Shown piece by piece: positions 2,345 through 56,900 of a DNA stretch of 64,000 nt. The stretch is from Escherichia phage LF82-4: the sequence record PV660448; one strand, 5' to 3'. Below the pieces are notes generated by a model. It saw only the letters and a list, made by a program, of their open reading frames with translations. It searched no databases and was not told the origin of the DNA. Every line of letters begins with the position of its first letter. The first letter of the stretch is position 1. The translations under genes and the position numbers were made by a program.

Positions 2345-4324
2345 ATGGCACTTCTCTCTCCGGGCGTTGAGCTCAAAGAAACTACCGTACAGAGTACTGT
2401 AGTTAATAACTCCACTGGTACTGCTGCTCTGGCTGGAAAATTCCAATGGGGCCCTGCATTCCAGATTAAACAAATCACTGATGAAGTTGCATTGGTTGAT
2501 ATGTTTGGTACTCCTAATACGGATACGGCAGATTATTTCATGTCTGCTATGAACTTCCTTCAATACGGTAATGACCTTCGTGTTGTACGCGCAGTTGATC
2601 GTGATACTGCTAAGAACTCATCTCCTGTAGCAGGCAATATCGAATTCACAATCTCAGCTGCAGGTAGTAACTATGCTGTTGGTGATAAAATTATCGTTAA
2701 GTATTTGTCCGAAACTGTTGAAGCAGATGGTTATGTCACTTCAGTTGATGTCGATGGTAAAATCCTTAACATTTATATCCCAACCGGTAAAATTATTGCT
2801 CGTGCAAAAGAAATTAATGAATATCCGGCATTAGGTTCTAACTGGACCGCCGAAGTTGCCAGTTCTTCTGGACTCTCTGGCGTTATTACAATTGGTTCTA
2901 TCGTAACCGATTCAGGTATTCTGTTGACTGAAGTTGAAACTTCAGAAGAAGCTATTACTTCTCTAACTTTCCAAGAATCTATTAAAAAATATGGTGTCCC
3001 AGGCGTAGTTGCTCTTTATCCTGGTGAACTTGGCGACCGGCTCGAAATTGAAATCGTATCTAAAGCAGACTATGACAAAGGTGCTTCAGCCCAGTTAAAA
3101 ATTTATCCTGATGGTGGTACTCGCGCATCTACTGCTAAAGCAATCTTTGGGTATGGCCCACAAACTGATGACCAATATGCGATTATCGTTCGTCGTAACG
3201 ATGCTGTAGTCCAGAGTGTAGTTCTTTCTACTAAACGCGGTGAACGCGATATTTATGGTAGTAATATCTTTATTGATGATTTCTTTGCTAAAGGCGCAAG
3301 CAATTATATTTTCGCTACTGCACAAGGTTGGCCAAAAGGTTTCTCTGGTGTAATCAAACTGAGTGGTGGCTTATCATCTAATGAAACGGTTGACGCTGGT
3401 GATTTAATGGAAGCTTGGGATTTGTTTGCGGACCGCGAATCTGTTAATGCGCAGTTGTTTATTGCCGGTTCTTGTGCAGGTGAATCTTTAGAAGTTGCTT
3501 CTACAGTTCAGAAACATGTTGTAGCAATTGGTGATTCTCGACAAGATTGCTTGGTTCTTTGCTCACCACCACGTGCAACTATAGTCGGTATTCCTGTTAA
3601 TCGTGCAGTTGATAATCTGGTTGATTGGCGTACTGCATCAGGATCTTACACTGATAATAACTTTAATGTAAGTTCTACTTATGCTGCTATTGACGGTAAC
3701 TATAAATATCAATACGACAAATATAACGATGTGAATCGTTGGGTTCCGTTAGCTGCTGATATTGCCGGTCTTTGTGCTCGCACAGACAATATTTCTCAGC
3801 CTTGGATGTCTCCGGCCGGTTATAACCGTGGACAAATTCTTAACGTTATTAAGCTTGCAATTGAAACTCGTCAACCACAACGTGATCGTTTGTATCAGGA
3901 AGCTATTAACCCTGTTACTGGTACCGGTGGTGACGGATATGTTCTGTACGGCGATAAAACTGCCACTTCCGTTCCTTCACCATTTGACCGTATTAACGTT
4001 CGTCGTTTGTTCAATATGGTTAAAACGAACATTGGTTCAGCATCTAAATATCGCCTGTTTGAATTGAACAACGCATTTACCCGTTCTTCTTTCCGTACAG
4101 AGACTTCTCAATATCTACAGGGTATTAAAGCTCTCGGTGGTGTATATAACTTTAAAGTTGTTTGTGATACTACCAATAACACCCCAGCAGTTATCGACCG
4201 TAATGAATTTGTAGCTACTTTCTACTTACAACCCGCCCGCTCGATAAATTATATTACGTTGAACTTTGTAGCAACAGCAACTGGTGCCGATTTCGACGAA
4301 CTGATTGGTGCTGTAGGTGGTTAA
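2345..4324 (+). CDS. 18: Contractile tail sheath protein (gp18)
   Basis: 659-aa ORF (T4 gp18 length); SD AAGAGGA upstream; TATAAATA late promoter at 2310-2317. Confidence 0.96.
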   Translation: MALLSPGVELKETTVQSTVVNNSTGTAALAGKFQWGPAFQIKQITDEVALVDMFGTPNTDTADYFMSAMNFLQYGNDLRVVRAVDRDTAKNSSPVAGNIEFTISAAGSNYAVGDKIIVKYLSETVEADGYVTSVDVDGKILNIYIPTGKIIARAKEINEYPALGSNWTAEVASSSGLSGVITIGSIVTDSGILLTEVETSEEAITSLTFQESIKKYGVPGVVALYPGELGDRLEIEIVSKADYDKGASAQLKIYPDGGTRASTAKAIFGYGPQTDDQYAIIVRRNDAVVQSVVLSTKRGERDIYGSNIFIDDFFAKGASNYIFATAQGWPKGFSGVIKLSGGLSSNETVDAGDLMEAWDLFADRESVNAQLFIAGSCAGESLEVASTVQKHVVAIGDSRQDCLVLCSPPRATIVGIPVNRAVDNLVDWRTASGSYTDNNFNVSSTYAAIDGNYKYQYDKYNDVNRWVPLAADIAGLCARTDNISQPWMSPAGYNRGQILNVIKLAIETRQPQRDRLYQEAINPVTGTGGDGYVLYGDKTATSVPSPFDRINVRRLFNMVKTNIGSASKYRLFELNNAFTRSSFRTETSQYLQGIKALGGVYNFKVVCDTTNNTPAVIDRNEFVATFYLQPARSINYITLNFVATATGADFDELIGAVGG

Positions 4325-4335
4325 TAAGACGCCTG

Positions 4336-4357
4336 ATGGGCTATTTCGGTAGCCCAT
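4336..4357 (+). terminator. Stem-loop after gene 18 (ATGGGCTA-UUUCGG-TAGCCCAT)
   Basis: 8-bp perfect inverted repeat; 3' arm abuts gene 19 late promoter. Confidence 0.5.
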
Positions 4358-4364
4358 ATAAATA
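4357..4364 (+). promoter_or_regulatory. Late promoter TATAAATA (gene 19)
   Basis: Exact TATAAATA abutting the post-gene-18 hairpin. Confidence 0.75.
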
Positions 4365-4436
4365 TACTATATCGTTTAAAAATTAATTCTATGGGCATCT
4401 GGTTAATCCTAAGCCCATATTACTACAGAGGCTAAT

Positions 4437-4928
4437 ATGTTTGTAGATGATGTAACTCGCGCCTTCGAATCTGGTGATTTCGCTCGCCCTAACCTGTTCG
4501 AAGTAGAAATCTCTTATCTTGGGCAAAACTTTAGCTTCCAGTGTCGTGCTACGGCTCTTCCTGCTGCAATTGTTGAAAAGGTTCCTGTTTCTTATATGAA
4601 CCGTAAAATTAACGTGGCCGGTGATCGTACATTCGATGATTGGACTATTACAGTAATGAACGACGATGCTCATAGTATTCGTCAGAAATTTGTTGATTGG
4701 CAAGGTATTGCAGCAGGACAAGGTAATGAAATTACCGGTGGTAAACCTGCTGAATATAAAAAGACTGCTATCGTTCGTCAATTTGCTCGTGATGCTAAAA
4801 CTGTCACTAAAGAAGTTGAAATTGTTGGCTTGTGGCCTACTAACGTTGGTGAAGTATCTCTTGACTGGGACAGCAATAACGAGATTGAAACGTTCGAAGT
4901 AACTCTTGCTCTTGATTGGTGGGAATAA
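4437..4928 (+). CDS. 19: Tail tube protein (gp19)
   Basis: 163-aa ORF; position after sheath gene; late promoter at 4357-4364. Confidence 0.94.
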   Translation: MFVDDVTRAFESGDFARPNLFEVEISYLGQNFSFQCRATALPAAIVEKVPVSYMNRKINVAGDRTFDDWTITVMNDDAHSIRQKFVDWQGIAAGQGNEITGGKPAEYKKTAIVRQFARDAKTVTKEVEIVGLWPTNVGEVSLDWDSNNEIETFEVTLALDWWE

Positions 4929-4934
4929 TCTGGT

Positions 4935-4950
4935 TGGGGAGAAATCCCCA
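4935..4950 (+). terminator. Stem-loop after gene 19 (TGGGGA-GAAA-TCCCCA)
   Basis: 6-bp stem, GNRA-type loop, upstream of gene 20 late promoter. Confidence 0.45.
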
Positions 4951-4976
4951 GCTTCCCGTGATGACGGAGAAGTCCA

Positions 4977-4984
4977 TATAAATA
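4977..4984 (+). promoter_or_regulatory. Late promoter TATAAATA (gene 20)
   Basis: Exact TATAAATA ~30 nt upstream of gene 20. Confidence 0.75.
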
Positions 4985-5012
4985 TAACTATAATTCCCAT
5001 TCGGAGAATACA

Positions 5013-6584
5013 ATGAAATTTAATATCTTAAGTTTGTTTGCTCCATGGGCAAAAATGGACGAACGTGATTACAAAGACCAAGAAAAAGAAAATTTAGAAT
5101 CGATCACCACACCAAAATTGGACGACGGTGCGAAAGAATACGAAGTATCTGAAAATGAAGCACAGCAAACATATAATGCTATGTTTCAGAGAATGTTCGG
5201 TAGTCAAGAACCAGGGCTCAAATCAACCCGTGAATTAATCGATACGTATCGAAATTTGATGACGAACTATGAAGTGGATAATGCAGTCTCTGAAATAGTT
5301 TCCGATGCTATCGTATATGAAGATGATACAGAAGTCGTTTCTATAAATTTAGACAACACAAAATTTAGTCCAAATATCAAATCAATGATGTTGGATGAAT
5401 TTAACGAAGTGTTAAATCATTTATCTTTCCAACGTAAAGGTTCAGACCATTTTAGACGTTGGTATGTGGATTCTCGAATTTTCTTCCATAAAATTATTGA
5501 CCCTAAACGCCCTAAAGAAGGTATTAAAGAGCTTCGTCGTTTAGACCCACGTCAAGTTCAATATGTCCGTGAAGTTATTACAACCACTGAAGCCGGTGTT
5601 AAAATAGTCAAGGGTTATAAAGAATATTTCATTTATGACACATCACACGAATCTTATGCTTGTGATGGTCGCATATATGAAGCTGGCACAAAAATAAAAA
5701 TCCCTAAAGCCGCGATTGTTTATGCCCATTCTGGTTTAGTTGATTGTTGTGGTAAAAATATCATTGGTTATTTGCATCGGGCTATTAAGCCGGCGAACCA
5801 ATTAAAACTTCTTGAAGATGCTGTTGTAATTTATCGTATTACTCGTGCTCCCGATCGTCGTGTATGGTACGTTGATACAGGTAATATGCCTTCAAGAAAA
5901 GCAGCAGAACATATGCAACATGTTATGAATACGATGAAAAACCGTATTGCATATGATGCTACTACAGGCAAGATTAAAAACCAGCAGCATATTATGTCGA
6001 TGACCGAAGATTATTGGTTACAACGACGTGATGGTAAAGCAGTAACAGAAGTTGATACATTACCGGGTGCAGATAATACCGGAAATATGGAAGATGTACG
6101 TTGGTTCCGTAATGCGCTTTATATGGCTTTACGTATTCCTATTACCCGTATTCCAAGTGACCAAGGTGGTATACAGTTTGATGCTGGTACTTCTATTACA
6201 CGAGATGAATTGTCATTTGGTAAATTTATTCGTGAGCTGCAACATAAATTTGAAGAGATATTCCTAGACCCGCTTAAAACTAATTTAATTCTTAAAGGAA
6301 TTATTACAGAAGATGAGTGGAATGATGAAATAAATAATATTAAGATAAAATTTCATCGGGATAGTTATTTCTCGGAATTAAAGGATGCTGAGATTCTGGA
6401 GCGTCGCATTAATATGCTTCAGATGGCCGAACCATTTATTGGTAAATATATTTCTCACAGAACAGCTATGAAAGATATTCTTCAGATGTCTGACGAGGAA
6501 ATTGAACAAGAGGCTAAGCAAATTGAAGAAGAGTCGAAAGAGGCTCGTTTCCAAGACCCCGACCAAGAACAAGAGGATTTTTAA
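5013..6584 (+). CDS. 20: Portal vertex protein (gp20)
   Basis: 523-aa ORF, T4 gp20-like; late promoter at 4977-4984. Confidence 0.95.
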
Positions 6585-13731: not shown

Positions 13732-13850
13732 AAATCACCATTATAAATAATAATATCAAAATAATTAGCAGAGACTCTGTCTCTGACCAGATGTTTAATT
13801 TGAATGGATAGAACCTAGATTCATTATACCATCAAAAAATGTAAAGCATA

Positions 13851-33631: not shown

Positions 33632-34000
33632 TTATGCAACTTTAATCCAATTGTCTAAATTTAAAACACCTTTGGCTTTCATTTTTTCGATCAGGTTATC
33701 TGCTGTAATGCGTCCATTTTGATACCATGTAACATCTTCAGAGTAACCAGTTTCTTCGTCAACATATGTTTCTGAACGAATTTTACCTGTAATAATAGTT
33801 TTTAATTCGTATGTGTCACCTGTGAAAAAGTTTGCTAACACAATTTTCCAAGAGAAATCATCAGAAGGACCTTCAGGGGTCATACAACCTACGAACTCAA
33901 ATTGCTCTTTGTATAACATCCACTGGAATTCTTTAATTTCGATAGCTTTATAACCGTCGTGGTCTTTACATTTGATGTATGAGTTCAGATTGATTTTCAT
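33632..34000 (-). CDS. Hypothetical protein (122 aa)
   Basis: ATG with SD GGAGAA; early-promoter-like element upstream. Confidence 0.6.
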   Translation of the reverse strand: MKINLNSYIKCKDHDGYKAIEIKEFQWMLYKEQFEFVGCMTPEGPSDDFSWKIVLANFFTGDTYELKTIITGKIRSETYVDEETGYSEDVTWYQNGRITADNLIEKMKAKGVLNLDNWIKVA

Positions 34001-34037
34001 TTTGTTCTCCGGTTTGTTTTATTGATTAGGTGGTACA

Positions 34038-34071
34038 AGTCTATAGTAACACATCCTACAGGAGAGTAAAC
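34038..34071 (-). promoter_or_regulatory. T4 early-promoter-like element
   Basis: GTTTAC...TGTTACTATAG cassette upstream of ORF 33632-34000. Confidence 0.5.
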
Positions 34072-34108
34072 ACTTTTTTTAAACTTTTTCTGCCCTAAAC
34101 GCACAAAA

Positions 34109-34126
34109 GGGAGACCGAAGTCTCCC
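34109..34126 (-). terminator. Hairpin terminator after the 59-aa basic ORF
   Basis: GGGAGAC-UUCG-GUCUCCC followed by UUUUGU on minus strand. Confidence 0.65.
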
Positions 34127-34131
34127 TAAAA

Positions 34132-34311
34132 TTATGCAACAACCTTTCCAAAACGAGAAGCATCATCTCGAAGAACTGCACGTGCTCTGCGCATGATCTT
34201 CTCAACTGTTTGATTAATACGAGAGTTCGACCCACGCTTGTATCCAGCGCGTTTAGAGGTACCATCAACTTTCTTTTCAACTGCTTTCTTTGCTTTAGCT
34301 TGTTTTGCCAT
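34132..34311 (-). CDS. Small highly basic protein (59 aa), not in the ORF track
   Basis: Hand-translated: MAKQAKAKKAVEKKVDGTSKRAGYKRGSNSRINQTVEKIMRRARAVLRDDASRFGKVVA; followed by GGGAGAC-UUCG-GUCUCCC terminator. Confidence 0.55.
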   Translation of the reverse strand: MAKQAKAKKAVEKKVDGTSKRAGYKRGSNSRINQTVEKIMRRARAVLRDDASRFGKVVA

Positions 34312-34474
34312 TATAAATTCTCTTTAAATGAAAATGCAGGACTTATTGACATTGCCTGCGCAAGCCCTCAAGGGGAACATAGGTTTTGGATATTTAACGA
34401 CAGGATAACCATAAACCCGTCATCATACCTACCATGACTTACACAGCTAACCTTTTGCTGACGCATGATAGCAA

Positions 34475-34723
34475 TTATTTCAAAGTAATAACAAAATGAC
34501 GAACTGCTTTACGAGCTGCAGAAGCCAGAGGCTTAGCATATTTCAGTTCATCTTTTGCTTCCAGTTCAGCAGCCAGAGTAGCCTGAGCAGGATTCAGATG
34601 TTTGAAATATCGCAGGATTTCCAGTGCTTCGGCTTCAACATCAATTGAAGCGCCGTAGTTTTCGTGACCGTTATTCCATGCGTTGCGTTGCAGTTCAAGA
34701 GCGTGTTGTAATTGTTTAATCAT
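34475..34723 (-). CDS. rIII: rIII lysis-inhibition accessory protein
   Basis: 82 aa (T4 rIII length) upstream of gene 31 in transcription order. Confidence 0.8.
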   Translation of the reverse strand: MIKQLQHALELQRNAWNNGHENYGASIDVEAEALEILRYFKHLNPAQATLAAELEAKDELKYAKPLASAARKAVRHFVITLK

Positions 34724-34847
34724 TTTAAATTCTCAATTCGAGATAATATTTAGTAGCCACGTTCGTCTGAATTTCACCTTCTTTCGACAAGTCTCTCAGT
34801 TGTAGGCTACCGCTTAGAAGAGTGTTCTCTTCATATAGTTATTTATA

Positions 34848-35180
34848 TCACTTATAAAGACACGGAATAGCTTTATAGTGGCATGTTACGAATTTCTGTT
34901 TAATTTCTTTAGGTTGTTTAAGTCCCAAAGCCACAAATGGATGTGGAACATTTCGAATTTGTCCAACTGGTAGTGGAGTCAAATCACCGACTTCAACAAA
35001 ACCTTCAGGAACATCAGGACCTACAGAATGAACTACGCATAGTTCAGGAACTTCACCTTGAACACGTTTACCAATCACAAGTCCTGATTCGGTAACTTCT
35101 TCATCACCTGCTTGAGCGGGTTCAGAAACCAGAATGACATATTCACCAACAGCACGAATTGGGAGTTGTACTTCAGACAT
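34848..35180 (-). CDS. 31: Co-chaperonin gp31 (GroES analogue)
   Basis: 110 aa, T4 gp31-like. Confidence 0.92.
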
Positions 35181-35237
35181 CTTATTTCCTTGTTGTTTGA
35201 CGATAGATTAATAATACCATACTATTCGTAAAGCATA

Positions 35238-35546
35238 TTACATAAGAAGCAAACGTTCTACCGGAGTACCATCAACCGAAATTACTTTATCAAGGCGGAA
35301 AGAACGCCACTGACCTAACTTGGTATCGAATGCTCGAACTGATTCACGAGGTTCATAACGAACTTCTGTTGCTGGATTGTTATTGACATATTTGACTTCA
35401 AGTTCATCGCGCGAAGCAAACATAGTGCGTACATCACCGTTAGCCTTTTCAAATACAACACAATGAACGCCTACAGACAGAATAGTTTTAATACGTTCAC
35501 GAAGAACCATAGTTTCTTGTTCAGTTAAAATCATATTATTCACCAC
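35238..35546 (-). CDS. Hypothetical protein (31.1 position)
   Basis: 102-aa ORF between cd and gene 31. Confidence 0.6.
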   Translation of the reverse strand: MVNNMILTEQETMVLRERIKTILSVGVHCVVFEKANGDVRTMFASRDELEVKYVNNNPATEVRYEPRESVRAFDTKLGQWRSFRLDKVISVDGTPVERLLLM

Positions 35547-36117
35547 AAAAGTTTCGGATTTGTTCCCAATTCAGAGAACGAAGATTATTACGAGAGTACT
35601 GAATTACTTCAATACCAGCTTGTTTTAGAATATCTGCCCAATTTTCAGGAGATCGGTCGTATAATTCTGCGTATACAACCTTTTTAATACCTGACTGCGT
35701 AATAGCTTTAGTGCAATCAGGACACGGAGAAAGCGTAGTATATAACGTAGCACCTTCAATAGAATTACCTTTACGAGCGGCAAACAAAATTGCATTCAAT
35801 TCTGCATGGATTTCATTATTAGCAGACCATGCACTATGAGCAGCTCGATGTTCTTTGGCTAAAACAAAATTATCTACCCGTCCAAATGCTGTAGTGCCTT
35901 CTTTATGTCCAGCAACGATGACTGGGATTGGTTTATTCTTCAACCAACCATTTTCAGATGCATGTTCGCAACAGTTAACGCCACCTGCAGGTGAACCGTT
36001 ATATCCAGTAGAGATAATGCGTCCATCTTTTTCAATGACGGCACCAACTTTCCATGAACAACATTTTGATTCTTGAGAAATCAGATATGCAATCTGAAGG
36101 TATGTGCTAGCTTTCAT
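35536..36117 (-). CDS. cd: dCMP deaminase
   Basis: 193 aa (T4 Cd length); zinc-binding HAE...PCxxC (HAELNAILFAARKG, SPCPDCTKAI). Confidence 0.95.
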   Translation of the reverse strand: MKASTYLQIAYLISQESKCCSWKVGAVIEKDGRIISTGYNGSPAGGVNCCEHASENGWLKNKPIPVIVAGHKEGTTAFGRVDNFVLAKEHRAAHSAWSANNEIHAELNAILFAARKGNSIEGATLYTTLSPCPDCTKAITQSGIKKVVYAELYDRSPENWADILKQAGIEVIQYSRNNLRSLNWEQIRNFCGE

Positions 36118-37109
36118 TATTGAACCTTATTAATATAAGTTAACAGCTCTTTAGTTTGTTCCCAACTGATGCACGCATCGGTAACGGAAACGCCATAGGA
36201 CATATTATCAGAAATTTTTTGATTTCCTTCATGTAGGAACGATTCTATCATAATTCCTTTGACCAAATCATTAGCTGCTAAATTTTTACCAATACCAATT
36301 TGATTGCTATAATGCCCATCAGCGTTTGCATGGCTACAGTCAACCATTACATAATGATTCAGACCTACTGCCCTTGCTTTGTTAGAAGCTTCTTGAATAT
36401 CAGAAGAATGATAGTTCGGGCCGTTGGTCCCGCCACGCAATACGATATGCGTATTCTGATTACCTTCAGCTTCAACAATGCCTACAGTACCATCGACGTC
36501 CATACCCATATACCGATGAGGCCAGGCGGCACTATACATCGCGTCTGTAGCTACTTTAATAGAACCATTGGTTGCGTTCTTGAAGCCTACGCACATCGGT
36601 AGACCTGAAGCAATTTCACGATGTGTCTGACTTTCAGTCGTACGGGCGCCAATAGCAACCCATGAGAAAATACCAGAAAGATACTTAATCGTGAATGGGT
36701 CTAATACTTCAGTTGCTAATGGAAGTCCCATACGTAGAAGTTTACGACACAATGTTCGTGCAACTATAAGACCGTGGTTCATATCAAAACTTCCGTCAAG
36801 ATATGGATCATTTACAAGACCTTTCCAACCTACGGTAGTTCGAGGCTTTTCAAAATAAACGCGCATCACTAACAGAACATTAGGAAGACGAGTTTGAAGT
36901 TCAGCCAGACGTTTGCCGTATTCAACCGCGGCAATAGGGTCATGAATTGAACAAGGACCTACAACAATAAGTTTGCGTGGGTCTTCACCGTTCATAATCG
37001 AATTAACTTGTTCGCGATGAGAAGCCACTTGTGATGCGTAAGCTTCCGACAAAGGAATAATCTCAGCCAGTTCTTTTGGAGAAATAAGTTTTCCGACGAC
37101 AGGTAACAT
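36117..37109 (-). CDS. 3-deoxy-D-arabino-heptulosonate-7-phosphate (DAHP) synthase, class I (AroF/AroG-like)
   Basis: 330 aa; motifs GPCSIHDP, VMRVYFEKPRTTVGWKGL, DCSHANADG, IMIESFLHEGNQ, YGVSVTDACISWE; SD AAGGA; stop overlaps cd start (TAATG). Confidence 0.92.
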   Translation of the reverse strand: MLPVVGKLISPKELAEIIPLSEAYASQVASHREQVNSIMNGEDPRKLIVVGPCSIHDPIAAVEYGKRLAELQTRLPNVLLVMRVYFEKPRTTVGWKGLVNDPYLDGSFDMNHGLIVARTLCRKLLRMGLPLATEVLDPFTIKYLSGIFSWVAIGARTTESQTHREIASGLPMCVGFKNATNGSIKVATDAMYSAAWPHRYMGMDVDGTVGIVEAEGNQNTHIVLRGGTNGPNYHSSDIQEASNKARAVGLNHYVMVDCSHANADGHYSNQIGIGKNLAANDLVKGIMIESFLHEGNQKISDNMSYGVSVTDACISWEQTKELLTYINKVQ

Positions 37110-37229
37110 AACAATCCTTAGGAGATATAAACAGATTCTGATTCAACAATACCTTTAACCGGATTAGACAGGCTAAGTTGGTAGTGCTCAGATTTATGAC
37201 CATTCTCGATAGTAATGAGATAGCTCTCA

Positions 37230-37466
37230 TTATAGTGTTCCATATACTCGAGTTGCTTCAACAAGACCATCACTGCCTAATTTAAGATTAGTAATTTGGT
37301 CACCATCTTTAGGATTAACGATTATGAGAAAAGAACGTGGAGATTCTTGAATAACTCGTAATGTTGCATCCTGGAAACGTTCAGACACTTTATTGATGAG
37401 TGCTTGAGCAAATTCTTTTACTTTAATCTGAAATTCGTGTACTGTAATTGGATTTTCACTTAGCAT
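37230..37466 (-). CDS. Hypothetical small protein
   Basis: Internal ATG (MLSENPITV...) with SD GAGGA; early-promoter-like element at 37492-37525. Confidence 0.45.
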   Translation of the reverse strand: MLSENPITVHEFQIKVKEFAQALINKVSERFQDATLRVIQESPRSFLIIVNPKDGDQITNLKLGSDGLVEATRVYGTL

Positions 37467-37491
37467 TTCAATTTCCTCATTTGTTGGTAGA

Positions 37492-37525
37492 GTTATAGTA
37501 TCACAACTCCACCATGTTGTAAACT
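37492..37525 (-). promoter_or_regulatory. T4 early-promoter-like element
   Basis: GTTTAC...GTGATACTATAA cassette upstream of small ORF 37230-37466. Confidence 0.5.
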
Positions 37526-37800
37526 TAAATTGCAAAACATTTAATTTCTTGTGAATCGAAATCAACTTCACACTGAATTACTAGTTCAGCATCAAGACCA
37601 AACACAACAATCACATGAGCCGAGCTGGGCAACAATGTAACAGACACAGAATCCACTTGGTCAGGCACCAGAGTATTCAAAACGTAGAGTAGTTCAGAGT
37701 GGACCTTAAGCTCGGTAGCAGTATCCAGCTTATCAAAGAAATGATTTGCGATAATCTGACTAAAAACGACCTTTACAATTTCAGAATATTTAGGGAACAT
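37525..37800 (-). CDS. Hypothetical protein
   Basis: 91-aa ORF in the cd-pseT interval. Confidence 0.5.
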   Translation of the reverse strand: MFPKYSEIVKVVFSQIIANHFFDKLDTATELKVHSELLYVLNTLVPDQVDSVSVTLLPSSAHVIVVFGLDAELVIQCEVDFDSQEIKCFAI

Positions 37801-37807
37801 AATTACC

Positions 37808-38032
37808 TCAGTGTACAGTATTTACTTTAACTCGAACAACAAATTGCTCGGTCGGTTCGCCTACAGGAACAAACTCTACATGATATTCGCCTTTGTAACG
37901 AGTATTCAGGTCGTTACGAATTTCGGTAAGCTTGTTGATTAATGTAGAACTCATATTAAGTCCTACTAGTTTACGAAGCATTTTGTATGCTTCATCTTCG
38001 ATTTCATGATGTTTATCGTACATAATTTTCAT
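37808..38032 (-). CDS. Hypothetical protein
   Basis: 74-aa ORF in the cd-pseT interval. Confidence 0.5.
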   Translation of the reverse strand: MKIMYDKHHEIEDEAYKMLRKLVGLNMSSTLINKLTEIRNDLNTRYKGEYHVEFVPVGEPTEQFVVRVKVNTVH

Positions 38033-38203
38033 TTAACCATTCAATTGCCTGGTCGACGTTATCAAATATACCACCGTCCAAACGTTCTTCATGCTCATAG
38101 TCCAGCACATCAATACCGAACTGTCCATTTACTAAAGGCCAGGCTACAAACAAATATTCTTTATGCTGTTCGATGGCCTCAATCACTTCATATAATCGTT
38201 TCA

Positions 38204-38204
<1 letters not shown>
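38013..38204 (-). CDS. Hypothetical protein
   Basis: 63-aa acidic ORF immediately downstream of pseT. Confidence 0.5.
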
Positions 38205-39290
<1,086 letters not shown>

Positions 39291-39291
<1 letters not shown>

Positions 39292-39590
39292 TATTTTATT
39301 CCTAAGAAAGTTTCAAGAATACGAATGTTATGCTCGCGCCGGTCTTTATTAATTTCAGCAACGTTTTTATTAATTGACGTACTTCTAACGTTTGAAGAAA
39401 TAAATTTAATCATATGACTTTTGAGTTGTTGCAAATCCAACCCTTTTTCTTTAGCAGCTTTACGAAGAGCTTTACCTGCTTCATCTAGTGCCTTTGCTGC
39501 ATCTTTGTCATAATTGCCAAGTGACATTCCACGACAGATATCAATATACTCATCAGACCGTTTGATGTAATTCTCTAGTAATGTTTTCAT
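39291..39590 (-). CDS. Hypothetical protein
   Basis: 99-aa ORF. Confidence 0.55.
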
Positions 39591-39647
39591 TTAGATTTCC
39601 TCAATTATCCATAGGAGCATTATAATCTGCTCCTGAGAGTTTGTAAA

Positions 39648-39872
39648 CTATTTTACTAAAGATTCAATATACTCGTGAAGAGCTTTAGTCGCTACTGCCC
39701 ACTTATTCTGATATTCATTTTTCAGATTAGCACGAGACTGAACTAACAATCGGTCATTAGTCGGAGGCAAAGATTCTAATCGTTGAATCTGGCGCCCATA
39801 AATCATAGCCGCCATTTCAGATTCATAGATAAGCCCTTTAATGTGTTCATGCTGTTCTTTAGTCATTGGCAT
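39648..39872 (-). CDS. Hypothetical protein
   Basis: 74-aa ORF. Confidence 0.55.
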   Translation of the reverse strand: MPMTKEQHEHIKGLIYESEMAAMIYGRQIQRLESLPPTNDRLLVQSRANLKNEYQNKWAVATKALHEYIESLVK

Positions 39873-40153
39873 TTTTCCTCTTTTAAACCACTACGATAAT
39901 AACATAACATAGTCTTCTGGTCATGTACATATCTTTTTACGTCGTTTAACCAGATACGAAATTCTTGAGAGTCTTCAAATGGCATTCCAACCCATGGATT
40001 ACCATCAATAACCTTTACTTGCCATTTCTGGTTATATTCAACAATAGATTCAGGCCATTGTGGATGTAAAGTTTCTTTAGGGCTTAAGGGCACATCCTGG
40101 GCACATCCAGCCAAAATGCCAATAGATAATACAACTGCGGATAATTTAATCAT
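39863..40153 (-). CDS. Outer-membrane spanin lipoprotein (o-spanin)
   Basis: 96 aa; signal peptide with lipobox LAGC; overlaps upstream i-spanin gene by 4 nt. Confidence 0.75.
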   Translation of the reverse strand: MIKLSAVVLSIGILAGCAQDVPLSPKETLHPQWPESIVEYNQKWQVKVIDGNPWVGMPFEDSQEFRIWLNDVKRYVHDQKTMLCYYRSGLKEEKCQ

Positions 40154-53941: not shown

Positions 53942-56900
53942 ATGGTTGACATCAAACGTAAGTTCAGGGCCGAAGATGGTCTTGACGCAGGCGGTGATAA
54001 GATAGTTAACGTTGCGCTTGCTGACCGCACAGTTGGCACCGATGGCGTGAACGTTGACTTTTTGGTGCAAGAAAACACCGTACAGAATTATGACGATACG
54101 CGCGCGTATACAAAAGATTTTATTGTTCTTTATGATAATCGTTTTTATCAAGCTTTAAGCGATATTCCAGCTCCGGCAGGCCCTTTCTCTTTGGCTAAAT
54201 GGAAGGCAACTCGTACAGATGCAGATTGGATTACAGTTCAAGGCGGAGATTTCCAATTATCAGTAGGTAACTCTATTGCGGTTGATACTTCAGCTGGCAC
54301 TGATATTAATTTCACTTTGCCTCAAAATCCTTTAGATGGCGATACAGTTATTTTGTCTGATATTGGTGGTAGAGTAGGCTATGTAAAAGTTCAAATTACT
54401 GCAGAGGCTCAAAGTATTGTAAACTTTAGAGGACAACAGGTTCGTTCAGTTTTAATGACGCACCCAAAATCTAAAATGGTCTTCATTTTTAGCAACCGCC
54501 TATGGCAAATGTATGTTTCTGATTACGAACGTAATGCAGTCACAGTAACTCCTGCTAAGCCATATCAGGCGCAACCTAACGATTTTATCATTCGACGTTT
54601 TACATCAGCCGCTCCTATTAATATTACATTGCCTCGCAATGCTAATAATGGCGATATTATTAATTTAGTTGATTTAGACAAATTAAACCCGTTATATCAC
54701 ACAATTGTCAAAACTTACGATGATACAACTTCTATACGAGAAGCCGGTGTTCATGTAGCAGAAGGACGTAATACTGCGGAAGCATTCTTTGTTTATGATT
54801 CTGCTAATAGCTTATGGCGTGTTTGGGAAGGTGACCAGAAATCTCGTTTACGTATAGTTCGTAATGATACTGATTTACGCCCTAATGAAGAAGTTCTTGT
54901 TTTTGGAACTAATAATGATACAATCTCGACGGTAAATCTTACTTTGCCTACAGATATTTTGTCTGGTGATACTGTTAAAATATCGTTGAATTATATGCGT
55001 AAAGGGCAAACTGTAAAAATTAAAGCTGCTGAAGGCGATACAATTGCTAGCAGTATTTCTTTATTACAGTTCCCAAAACGTTCAGAGTATCCACCTGATG
55101 CACAATGGGTTTCTGTTAGTGAGCTGGAATTTAATGGCGATACTTCGTATGTACCTGTACTTGAGTTAGCTTATATAGAAGATTATTCATCTGAAACAAA
55201 ATATTGGGTAGTTCAACAAAACACTGTAACCGTCGAACGAGTCGATGCATCGAGCAATACAACTCGAGCTCGTTTAGGTGTTATTGCTCTTGCTTCTCAA
55301 GCGCAAGCAAATGTCGATTTAGAAAATGCTCCTGGTAAAGAACTTGCTATTACTCCGGAAACATTAGCAAATCGTACAGCAACTGAAACTCGTCGTGGTA
55401 TTGCTCGTATTGCAACAACTGCACAAGTTAACCAGAATACCGATTTTGCATTCCAAGACGACTTGATTATTTCTCCTAAGAAATTGAACGAACGTACAGC
55501 AACTGAAACCCGTAGAGGTGTTGCTGAAGTTGCAACTCAGGATGAAACTAATGCTGGCATAGATGATACCACTATTATTACTCCTAAGAAATTGGATGCC
55601 CGTCAAGGTTCTGAAGTTTTATCTGGTATTGTAAAATACACATCTACGACTGGTACTACAGCGGCTACTGTTCGTGGTAATGCTGGGACTAACGTTTATA
55701 ACAAAGCCGTAGATAATTTAACTATTTCTCCAAAGGCTCTTGACCAGTATAAAGCTACACATACTCAACAGGGCGCAGTAATTCTTGCTATTGAAAGTGA
55801 AGTTATCGCTGGTGAATCACAAGCCGGTTGGGCTAATGCTGTAGTGACTCCTGAAACTCTGCATAAGAAAACTTCTACTGATGGACGTATTGGTTTAATT
55901 GAAATTGCTACGCAAGCAGAAACTAACACTGGGACTGATTATACTAGAGCAGTAACGCCTAAGACGTTAAATGATAGGAAAGCTACGGAAGGATTATCCG
56001 GCATAGCCGAACTTGCTACGCAAGTTGAATTTGATACTGGAACTGATGATACTCGTATCTCGACTCCACTGAAAATTAAAACTCATTTTGATTCTTCTGG
56101 CCGTACCAGTGTTAATTCTGATTCCGGACTTATTGAAGAAGGAACCTTGTGGAACCATTATACTCTTGATATTTCTAAAGCAAATGAAACACAACGTGGT
56201 ACACTTCGCGTAGCGACTCAGGCAGAATCTAATGCCGGAACTTTAGATGATGTTCTTATTACTCCTAAAAAACTTTTAGGGACTAAGTCCACTGAAACGT
56301 CTGAAGGCGTGATTAAGGTTGCTACTCAGGCTGAAACTGTAACAGGAACTTCTGCTAATACTGCTGTATCGCCTAAGAATTTAAAATGGATTGTCCAGGA
56401 TGAACCAACATGGGCTGCTACTACGGCAATTCGTGGATTCGTTAAAACTTCATCCGGTTCTATTACATTCGTTGGTGACGATACTCAAGGTAGTACCCAG
56501 GATCTGAATCTTTACGAGAAAAATAGTTATGCTATTTCTCCATATGAATTAAACCGTGTACTTGCTAACTATTTGCCATTGAAAGCTAAAGCTGTAGATA
56601 GTAATCTGTTAGATGGTCTAGATTCTCTTCAGTTCATCCGTAGAGACATCGACCAGACGGTTAATGGTTCTTTAAGTCTTACTAAACAGACCAACCTGAG
56701 TGCTCCTTTAGTATCTACAAGCACTGCTTCTTTTGGATCTGAAGCATCTGTTACTCGTAGATTAACTCTTAATGACTCTAGCGGTTCCGAAATAGTTTTC
56801 ACTAAAGGAACTCAATCTCTTAGTAATAAAGAGAATTTCGTTGTTAGAGCATGGGGTAATAGCGCTACAGATGGTGCCCGTGATACAGTATTTGAAGCGG

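Follow-up and report, generated by a model that had tools for sequence, protein, structure and literature searches.

The stretch of Escherichia phage LF82-4 considered here (64,000 nucleotides of sequence record PV660448; below, the window) comes from a Mosigvirus, an RB69-like phage of the T4 type. Over positions 35000-38300 it shares 99.6% identity with Escherichia phage CCU7. Between the genes cd.2 and cd, within the pseT-cd interval, the window contains an open reading frame (ORF) of 330 amino acids that, judged from its translation, is an intact gene for a type I-alpha 3-deoxy-D-arabino-hept-2-ulosonate 7-phosphate (DAHP) synthase. The product is probably an active enzyme that escapes feedback by tyrosine, phenylalanine and tryptophan, encoded by an auxiliary metabolic gene that would supply mainly aromatic amino acids. 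The family is already catalogued as an auxiliary metabolic gene of T4-like phages (Straboviridae) infecting Enterobacterales. What is new here is the scar left by the acquisition of the gene in Mosigvirus, and the clade-wide remodelling of the inhibitor pocket together with the loss of the N-terminal extension.

The protein scored well above the cutoffs of the family models, namely Pfam DAHP_synth_1 (E=5.2e-75, 252 bits against a cutoff of 25.5), the NCBIfam aroFGH equivalog TIGR00034 (427.7 bits against 173.2) and PRK12755 (455 bits against 343). In a sequence comparison with the PDB, the best match is AroF of E. coli (6AGM, E=5e-105). The preliminary description of this DNA, made from the sequence, had assigned the ORF to class I-alpha by the motifs GPCSIHDP (Cys53), VMRVYFEKPRTTVGWKGL, DCSHANADG (His260), IMIESFLHEGNQ (Glu289) and YGVSVTDACISWE (Asp311), all of which are present, and the profile matches agree with it. 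In AroG numbering, the metal ligands are Cys61, His268, Glu302 and Asp326, and phosphoenolpyruvate (PEP) and erythrose-4-phosphate are bound by Arg92, Lys97, Arg99, Arg165, Lys186 and Arg234. The window protein has the complete set (C53, H260, E289, D311, R83, K88, R90, R156, K177, R225), and the positions C61, R92, K97, R99, R165, K186, R234, H268, E302 and D326 are invariant in 123 of 123 aligned sequences, 25 from phages and 98 cellular. With this set complete, the phage enzyme is predicted to be catalytically competent and to convert PEP and erythrose-4-phosphate to DAHP.

The AlphaFold2 model, computed from a 49-sequence alignment, has a predicted local distance difference test score of 91.8 and a predicted template modelling (TM) score of 0.91. 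It is a (beta/alpha)8 barrel with an internal beta-hairpin (strands 198-203 and 209-214) and superimposes on 1KFL, 1QR7 and 4HSN (AroG, NmeDAH7PS) with TM 0.95 and a root mean square deviation of 1.6 Å. The viral structure library BFVD yielded nothing close, the nearest matches being giant-virus KDO8P synthases (TM 0.58); the family of this widespread phage protein thus seems to be missing from the library. One further position concerns the quaternary structure. The tetramer interface of AroG contains the salt bridge E24-R124, and that of NmeDAH7PS the bridge E27-R126, loss of which produces a dimer. The equivalent of AroG R124 in the window protein is I115, and this replacement of the interface arginine means that the phage enzyme may be a dimer rather than a tetramer; the position varies across the phage clade.

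In type I-alpha enzymes the phenylalanine site is formed by the N-terminal extension and the beta-hairpin, and the extension helps to build the allosteric site of the partner subunit (PMC4735112). The catalytic cysteine is preceded by 52 residues in the window protein and by 48-52 in the phage clade, whereas there are at least 58 in the 98 cellular homologues and 59-61 in E. coli AroH, AroG and AroF. Residues corresponding to AroG D6 and D7 are lacking in the phage clade. The C-terminus of the window protein is shorter than in AroF, AroG and AroH of E. coli as well. Thus both termini are short, as noted in the preliminary description, and its guess that regulation might differ is strongly reinforced by the loss of the N-terminal segment and by the six pocket columns described below.

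We screened the alignment for columns with one residue fixed in the 25 phage sequences and a different one fixed in the 98 cellular proteins. No more than six columns separate the two groups: P150I, Q151K, D155G, S180P, F209Y and T223A (AroG numbering). The inhibitor site comprises the equivalents of AroG residues 147, 151, 155, 179, 180, 209, 211, 212 and 214 (PMC9529685), and four of the six columns fall within these nine residues (P=3.9e-6). Five are among the 14 positions that belong to the site or are known for feedback resistance (P=3.8e-7). Q151/Q152 and S180/S181 contact the main chain of the inhibitor and D155 makes a stabilising salt bridge; AroG becomes resistant to feedback through S180F, and completely so through P150L or D146N (PMC9529685). 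In the alignment with AroF, AroG and AroH of E. coli the catalytic residues are kept and several residues of the allosteric site are altered. Among the inhibitor residues of AroF (P148, Q152, D156, S181, F210) only the proline is retained, the others being changed from Q to K, D to G, S to P and F to Y. Three or more of the six phage residues are found together in none of the 248 cellular or uncharacterised homologues examined, among them 150 more diverse representatives taken from 50%-identity clusters. The pair S180P and F209Y does recur, in a handful of metagenomic proteins that have a short N-terminus and fall into unnamed singleton clusters. Inhibition by tyrosine, phenylalanine and tryptophan at the canonical site has probably been lost. 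We also considered equating the resistance sites AroF P148L and AroFcg P155I with the proline-to-isoleucine change in phages. This was dropped: the counterpart of these sites in AroG is position 147, at which the phage clade retains proline, and the phage change is at AroG P150.

Several GenBank records label the protein as a Tyr-sensitive AroF, that is, an ordinary isozyme that would add regulated capacity. E. coli AroF is the best match of solved structure, the glycine at AroG position 211 and the proline at 147 are those of AroF, and the hairpin is kept in the model. However, Q151, S180 and D155 are replaced, position 150, where leucine makes AroG completely resistant, is occupied by isoleucine, and the protein lacks the N-terminal residues with which one subunit completes the site in its partner. 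Neither the AroG- nor the AroH-specific NCBIfam model reached its cutoff (363 bits against 568 and 386 against 463, respectively), and the output contained no AroF-specific equivalog. A tyrosine-sensitive enzyme is thus unlikely.

Another possibility is that the pocket has been re-tuned rather than lost and now binds another effector, or a protein partner from the phage or the host, providing phage-specific control of entry into the shikimate pathway. The new pocket residues are strictly conserved, which argues for a site that has been remodelled and held and is not decaying. Residues 131-170 are conserved at 97-100% in the phage clade, compared with 77-96% in cells, a pattern indicative of purifying selection on the new state of this 40-residue segment; lysine at 151 and tyrosine at 209 bring new polar groups. 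On the other hand, no result points to a candidate ligand or partner. Moreover, the segment also lies in the tight-dimer interface (PMC4735112), and its conservation could reflect repacking after the loss of the N-terminal extension. We regard re-tuning as a serious alternative, although not a likely one. Taken more broadly, the enzymes of T4-like phages may form a natural subclass of the type I-alpha family, with a short N-terminus and the residues I-K-G-P-Y-A at positions 150, 151, 155, 180, 209 and 223, that would be either feedback-insensitive or subject to a phage-specific signal; towards this description we lean slightly.

The phage proteins are well separated from the cellular ones. Among the 120 best database homologues, those with at least about 55% identity are 319-343 amino acids long and, where the context is available, reside on T4-like genomes or contigs. 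Cellular homologues, which represent many phyla, set in at about 55% identity, with enterobacterial AroF at about 52%; the nearest cellular proteins are 50-55% identical, and identity to AroF, AroG and AroH of E. coli is 43-51%. The 25 phage-type sequences form a monophyletic group in the neighbour-joining tree, and no cellular sequence falls among them; when the tree was midpoint-rooted, no cellular donor lineage could be identified for the phage clade. The GC content of the gene is 41.7%, and 30.6% at third codon positions (GC3), in a window of 38.1% GC; the values for aroF, aroG and aroH of E. coli are 52-53% and 50-57%, respectively. The phage-like GC3, the monophyly and the moderate identity to cellular enzymes argue for long residence in phages, which is what the preliminary description had proposed. 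The opposite explanation, recently captured host DNA or a decaying pseudogene, could draw only on the absence of the gene from RB69 and T4. It is refuted by the intact frame, the invariance of all catalytic residues, the phage-like GC3, the low identity to the E. coli enzymes and the conservation at 55-77% identity across several phage genera, and can be considered practically nil. As a side observation, the database also contains homologues of 600-770 amino acids, which are about double length or fused to other domains, and one homologue (P0121, 799 amino acids) matches the query in two stretches, suggesting a tandem duplication of DAHP synthase.

A tblastn search of 50,697 phage records with the 330-aa protein found homologues in 212. 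Identity is at least 99% in 100 records, 95-99% in 39, 60-80% in 47 (phages of Klebsiella, Enterobacter, Edwardsiella, Serratia and Erwinia) and below 60% in 26 (phages of Proteus, Acinetobacter and Aeromonas, and faecal contigs). The usual names in these records are phospho-2-dehydro-3-deoxyheptonate aldolase, DAHP synthase, AroG and AroF. A 100%-identical protein is annotated at the same position in RefSeq records of Mosigvirus such as NC_025437, NC_041863 and NC_055781, and in the first of these the gene lies between cd.2 and cd, as in the window. Dozens of Mosigvirus genomes encode the identical protein; it is present in Shf125875, the O157 typing phages 3, 6 and 13, p000v, phiC120 and others. 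In PHROGs v4 the protein matches phrog_5045 over residues 1-330 (E=3.2e-182), in the category 'moron, auxiliary metabolic gene and host takeover'. The genome paper of phiC120 mentions the domain in passing (PMC8022965), and a 2025 paper on Klebsiella phages treats the Kanagawavirus copy as an auxiliary metabolic gene proposed to supply aromatic amino acids and derived metabolites (PMC11845039). The novelty suggested for the gene in the preliminary description therefore does not stand: hundreds of phage genomes already have it annotated, PHROGs places it among the auxiliary metabolic genes, and its discovery as such is of no importance. The same description was right that T4 has no aro gene here, as Tequatrovirus matches to the region are confined to the flanks and RB69 also lacks the gene. 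The annotation of the identical 330-aa protein is uneven, ranging over 'hypothetical protein', 'putative aldolase', 'AroG', 'DHAP synthase class 1' and 'aroF, Tyr-sensitive'. The last label is a similarity transfer and is unjustified, because the pocket residues do not support it.

Flux through the shikimate pathway is controlled at its first step, that of DAHP synthase, which is subject to feedback inhibition; variants resistant to this inhibition yield more aromatic product (PMC9529685). The phage gene would be read leftward with the early and middle genes of the pseT-cd interval. After host gene expression is shut off and the host aro genes can no longer be induced, an uninhibited enzyme would keep carbon entering the pathway, and the remaining six enzymes of the host would complete the route. 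The main benefit would be phenylalanine, tyrosine and tryptophan for the burst of phage protein synthesis, with chorismate-derived cofactors, folate included, as a secondary one; aromatic amino acids are favoured as the end use on grounds of flux. The ORFs of the window contain 3.9% tyrosine and 4.3% phenylalanine, against about 2.8% and 3.9% in E. coli, which is weak evidence for demand.

The preliminary description had instead linked the enzyme to the nucleotide metabolism genes around it: it would raise chorismate and hence para-aminobenzoate and folate, for the synthesis of dTMP. On such a reading the synthesis of hydroxymethyl-dCMP would be served too. The gene occupies the same pseT-cd slot in Mosigvirus, Marfavirus, Bragavirus, Kanagawavirus and an uncultured T4-like contig (L008) that holds the deepest-branching member, and in four T4-like lineages it is directly upstream of cd. 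The junctions are as tight elsewhere as in the window: there is a 2-nt gap in phage Marfa, the genes abut in Kanagawavirus, and they overlap by 4 nt in contig L008, where frd and td are a few kb away. The TAATG overlap in the window suggests co-expression with cd. However, the adjacency is frequent and not universal. Two small ORFs separate the gene from cd in the Proteus phages (Bragavirus), and the contigs L009 and L010 have the gene with no adjoining cd; one such contig is T4-like. In all genera examined the pseT-cd interval holds a varying set of small cargo genes, and no pab or fol biosynthetic gene was seen beside the DAHP synthase gene. Folate cofactors are regenerated (by frd) and not consumed, and very little of the chorismate flux goes into the folate branch. 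The only paper discussing the role of the gene proposes aromatic amino acids and derived metabolites (PMC11845039). The folate rationale was drawn from gene position, and we consider it improbable as the main role.

One could also imagine a metabolic sink serving host takeover, in which the consumption of PEP and erythrose-4-phosphate redirects central carbon, e.g. the non-oxidative pentose-phosphate pathway, and the products are irrelevant. Only the first enzyme of the pathway is seen at the locus, it looks deregulated, and the PHROGs category includes host takeover. However, this is pure speculation that no result here supports. Overexpression of feedback-resistant DAHP synthase in E. coli is a classic route to aromatic flux (PMC9529685), which makes product formation the simpler expectation, and a sink is very unlikely.

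Several points weigh against a feedback-free enzyme that feeds aromatic amino acid synthesis. The feedback insensitivity is a prediction from residues. The strict conservation of the segment and the retained beta-hairpin are to be expected of a remodelled site that still works no less than of a dead one, and glycine at AroG position 211 (a Tyr-type residue), Leu179 and Asp146 are kept. RB69 and the Mosigvirus vB_Eco_mar005P1 manage without the gene, which is thus dispensable. A full-text literature search on phage DAHP synthase returned the two papers cited above, with passing mentions, and no biochemical or genetic study. Finally, the beneficiary may instead be folate or something else.

The history of the locus can be read from empty sites. 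In RB69 and vB_Eco_mar005P1, cd.2 abuts cd, the stop codon of the former overlapping the start codon of the latter (TAATG). In the window, the resident cd.2 is 99% identical to that of mar005P1, and it is separated from the DAHP synthase gene by 120 bp that are filled by a 41-aa ORF. The final 36 residues of this ORF match the cd.2 family, and they are closer to the C-terminus of the Kanagawavirus cd.2 protein (SYLITIE.G...VES.SVY) than to that of the resident Mosigvirus cd.2. The fragment is 94-100% conserved in about 139 Mosigvirus records carrying the DAHP synthase gene and is absent at the two empty sites. The left junction TAATGAGAGCTATCTCAT resembles the sequence at the cd start, TAATGAAAGCTAGCACAT (36102..36119), so that an imperfect direct repeat surrounds the inserted module. 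In Kanagawavirus (Entb_45, PEi26) the gene order is pseT - orf - cd.3 - cd.2 - DAHP synthase - cd, and the Kanagawavirus enzyme is the closest outgroup (77% identity). The simplest reading of the scar is that a module consisting of the 3' end of cd.2 and the DAHP synthase gene entered the Mosigvirus ancestor from a Kanagawavirus-like phage by recombination. One crossover would have occurred at short homology on the cd.2/cd boundary, and the other within cd. The alternative polarity is a deletion between the imperfect repeats in RB69-type genomes. We also looked for a donor-derived 5' part of cd by comparing the window with an empty-site phage, but the only drop in identity, to 81%, is at bases 101-200 and does not decide the matter. 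The stop codon of the 41-aa ORF falls inside the Shine-Dalgarno sequence of the DAHP synthase gene; in relatives the ORF is annotated as 'hypothetical protein' in some records and unannotated in others.

The features of the locus are listed in the table. The preliminary description had reported both the TAATG overlap and the separate AAGGA of the gene, and both are present in the sequence. The stop codon TAA occupies 36119-36117 and the cd start codon ATG 36117-36115, an arrangement by which translation of the DAHP synthase gene is probably coupled to that of cd. Sites resembling sigma-70 promoters are not enriched in 34000..40000 (17 found, 18.2 expected), and thus no promoter was assigned; TTTACA-17-TATAAT at 39647..39619 and a MotA-box-like site at 38511..38487 are consensus matches only. 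The pattern TGCTTNA-N11-13-TANNNT, similar to T4 middle promoters, occurs 16 times in the whole window against 3.8 expected, a number reached in none of 100 shuffles. These sites are mostly on the minus strand (e.g. 38511..38487, 35235..35211, 13848..13823, 56182..56157), and one of them is inside pseT, upstream of the gene run from cd.4 to cd. The cd gene of RB69 is annotated with 169 amino acids (4743..5252 of the RB69 stretch) compared with 193 in the window and in other Mosigviruses, and in RB69 a gap of 76 bp precedes gene 31.1; the difference may be a C-terminal or an annotation matter.

Table. Features of the DAHP synthase locus in the window (positions are those of the whole stretch)
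Feature	Position	Strand	Basis
DAHP synthase gene, type I-alpha, 330 aa, ATG start	36117..37109 (including stop codon)	-	ORF call; Pfam/NCBIfam, PDB, AlphaFold2 and PHROG matches
cd, dCMP deaminase, directly downstream of the DAHP synthase gene	35536..36117	-	Pfam dCMP_cyt_deam_1, E=1.6e-26; named cd in relatives
TAATG junction, DAHP synthase stop and cd start sharing one base	36115..36119	-	read from sequence
AAGGA, Shine-Dalgarno-like, 5 nt before the DAHP synthase ATG	37115..37119	-	consensus resemblance only
Codons 132-171 (ATEVLDPFTIKYLSGIFSWVAIGARTTESQTHREIASGLP), alpha-helical segment with remodelled I141, K142, G146, P171	36597..36716	-	clade-specific residues; roles according to PMC9529685
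41-aa ORF in the gap between cd.2 and the DAHP synthase gene	37118..37243	-	DUF7320, E=1.3e-6; phrog_15876, phrog_1504
Left junction TAATGAGAGCTATCTCAT	37215..37232	-	window aligned to the mar005P1 empty site
cd.2, 78-aa DUF7320 protein, resident upstream neighbour	37230..37466	-	Pfam DUF7320, E=4e-35; phrog_1504

The phage clade resembles an experiment of nature in which feedback on the committed step of the shikimate pathway has been abolished or rewired. If this is borne out, a virulent phage would override an allosteric checkpoint of its host rather than merely add an enzyme, databases would have to correct their 'Tyr-sensitive AroF' labels, and the clade would offer compact, naturally deregulated DAHP synthases for making aromatic compounds. 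The cd.2-fragment scar is a clean, datable case of module exchange between T4-like genera.

The phage enzyme shares with AroF, AroG and AroH of E. coli (6AGM, 1KFL, 1QR7) the fold, the metal ligands, the residues binding PEP and erythrose-4-phosphate, including the KPRT motif, and the beta6a/6b hairpin. It differs from them in an N-terminus shorter by 7-9 residues, a shorter C-terminus, two small internal deletions, the six pocket changes and the phage codon composition. The window protein is a full-length member of the phrog_5045 family (Mosigvirus, Kanagawavirus, Marfavirus, Bragavirus and related phages), sits in the same pseT-cd slot and shows no material difference from it; the Mosigvirus copies add the upstream scar. 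Aeromonas phage HJ05 (OQ594355.1, 79 kb, not T4-like) also encodes a DAHP_synth_1 homologue with an intact catalytic set (3899..5062), annotated as hypothetical. However, the HJ05 protein is only 38% identical, has 387 amino acids with a long N-terminus, and carries other residues in the pocket; it looks like a separate acquisition by phages. The phage clade would be a natural counterpart of the engineered feedback-resistant enzymes (AroG P150L, S180F and D146N, and AroF variants): its changes are at the same positions 150 and 180 and at the inhibitor-contacting positions 151, 155 and 209. Unlike the engineered substitutions, those of the phages are natural, multiple and fixed in the clade, with isoleucine, proline, lysine, glycine and tyrosine instead of leucine and phenylalanine, and their predicted effect is a similar release from inhibition.

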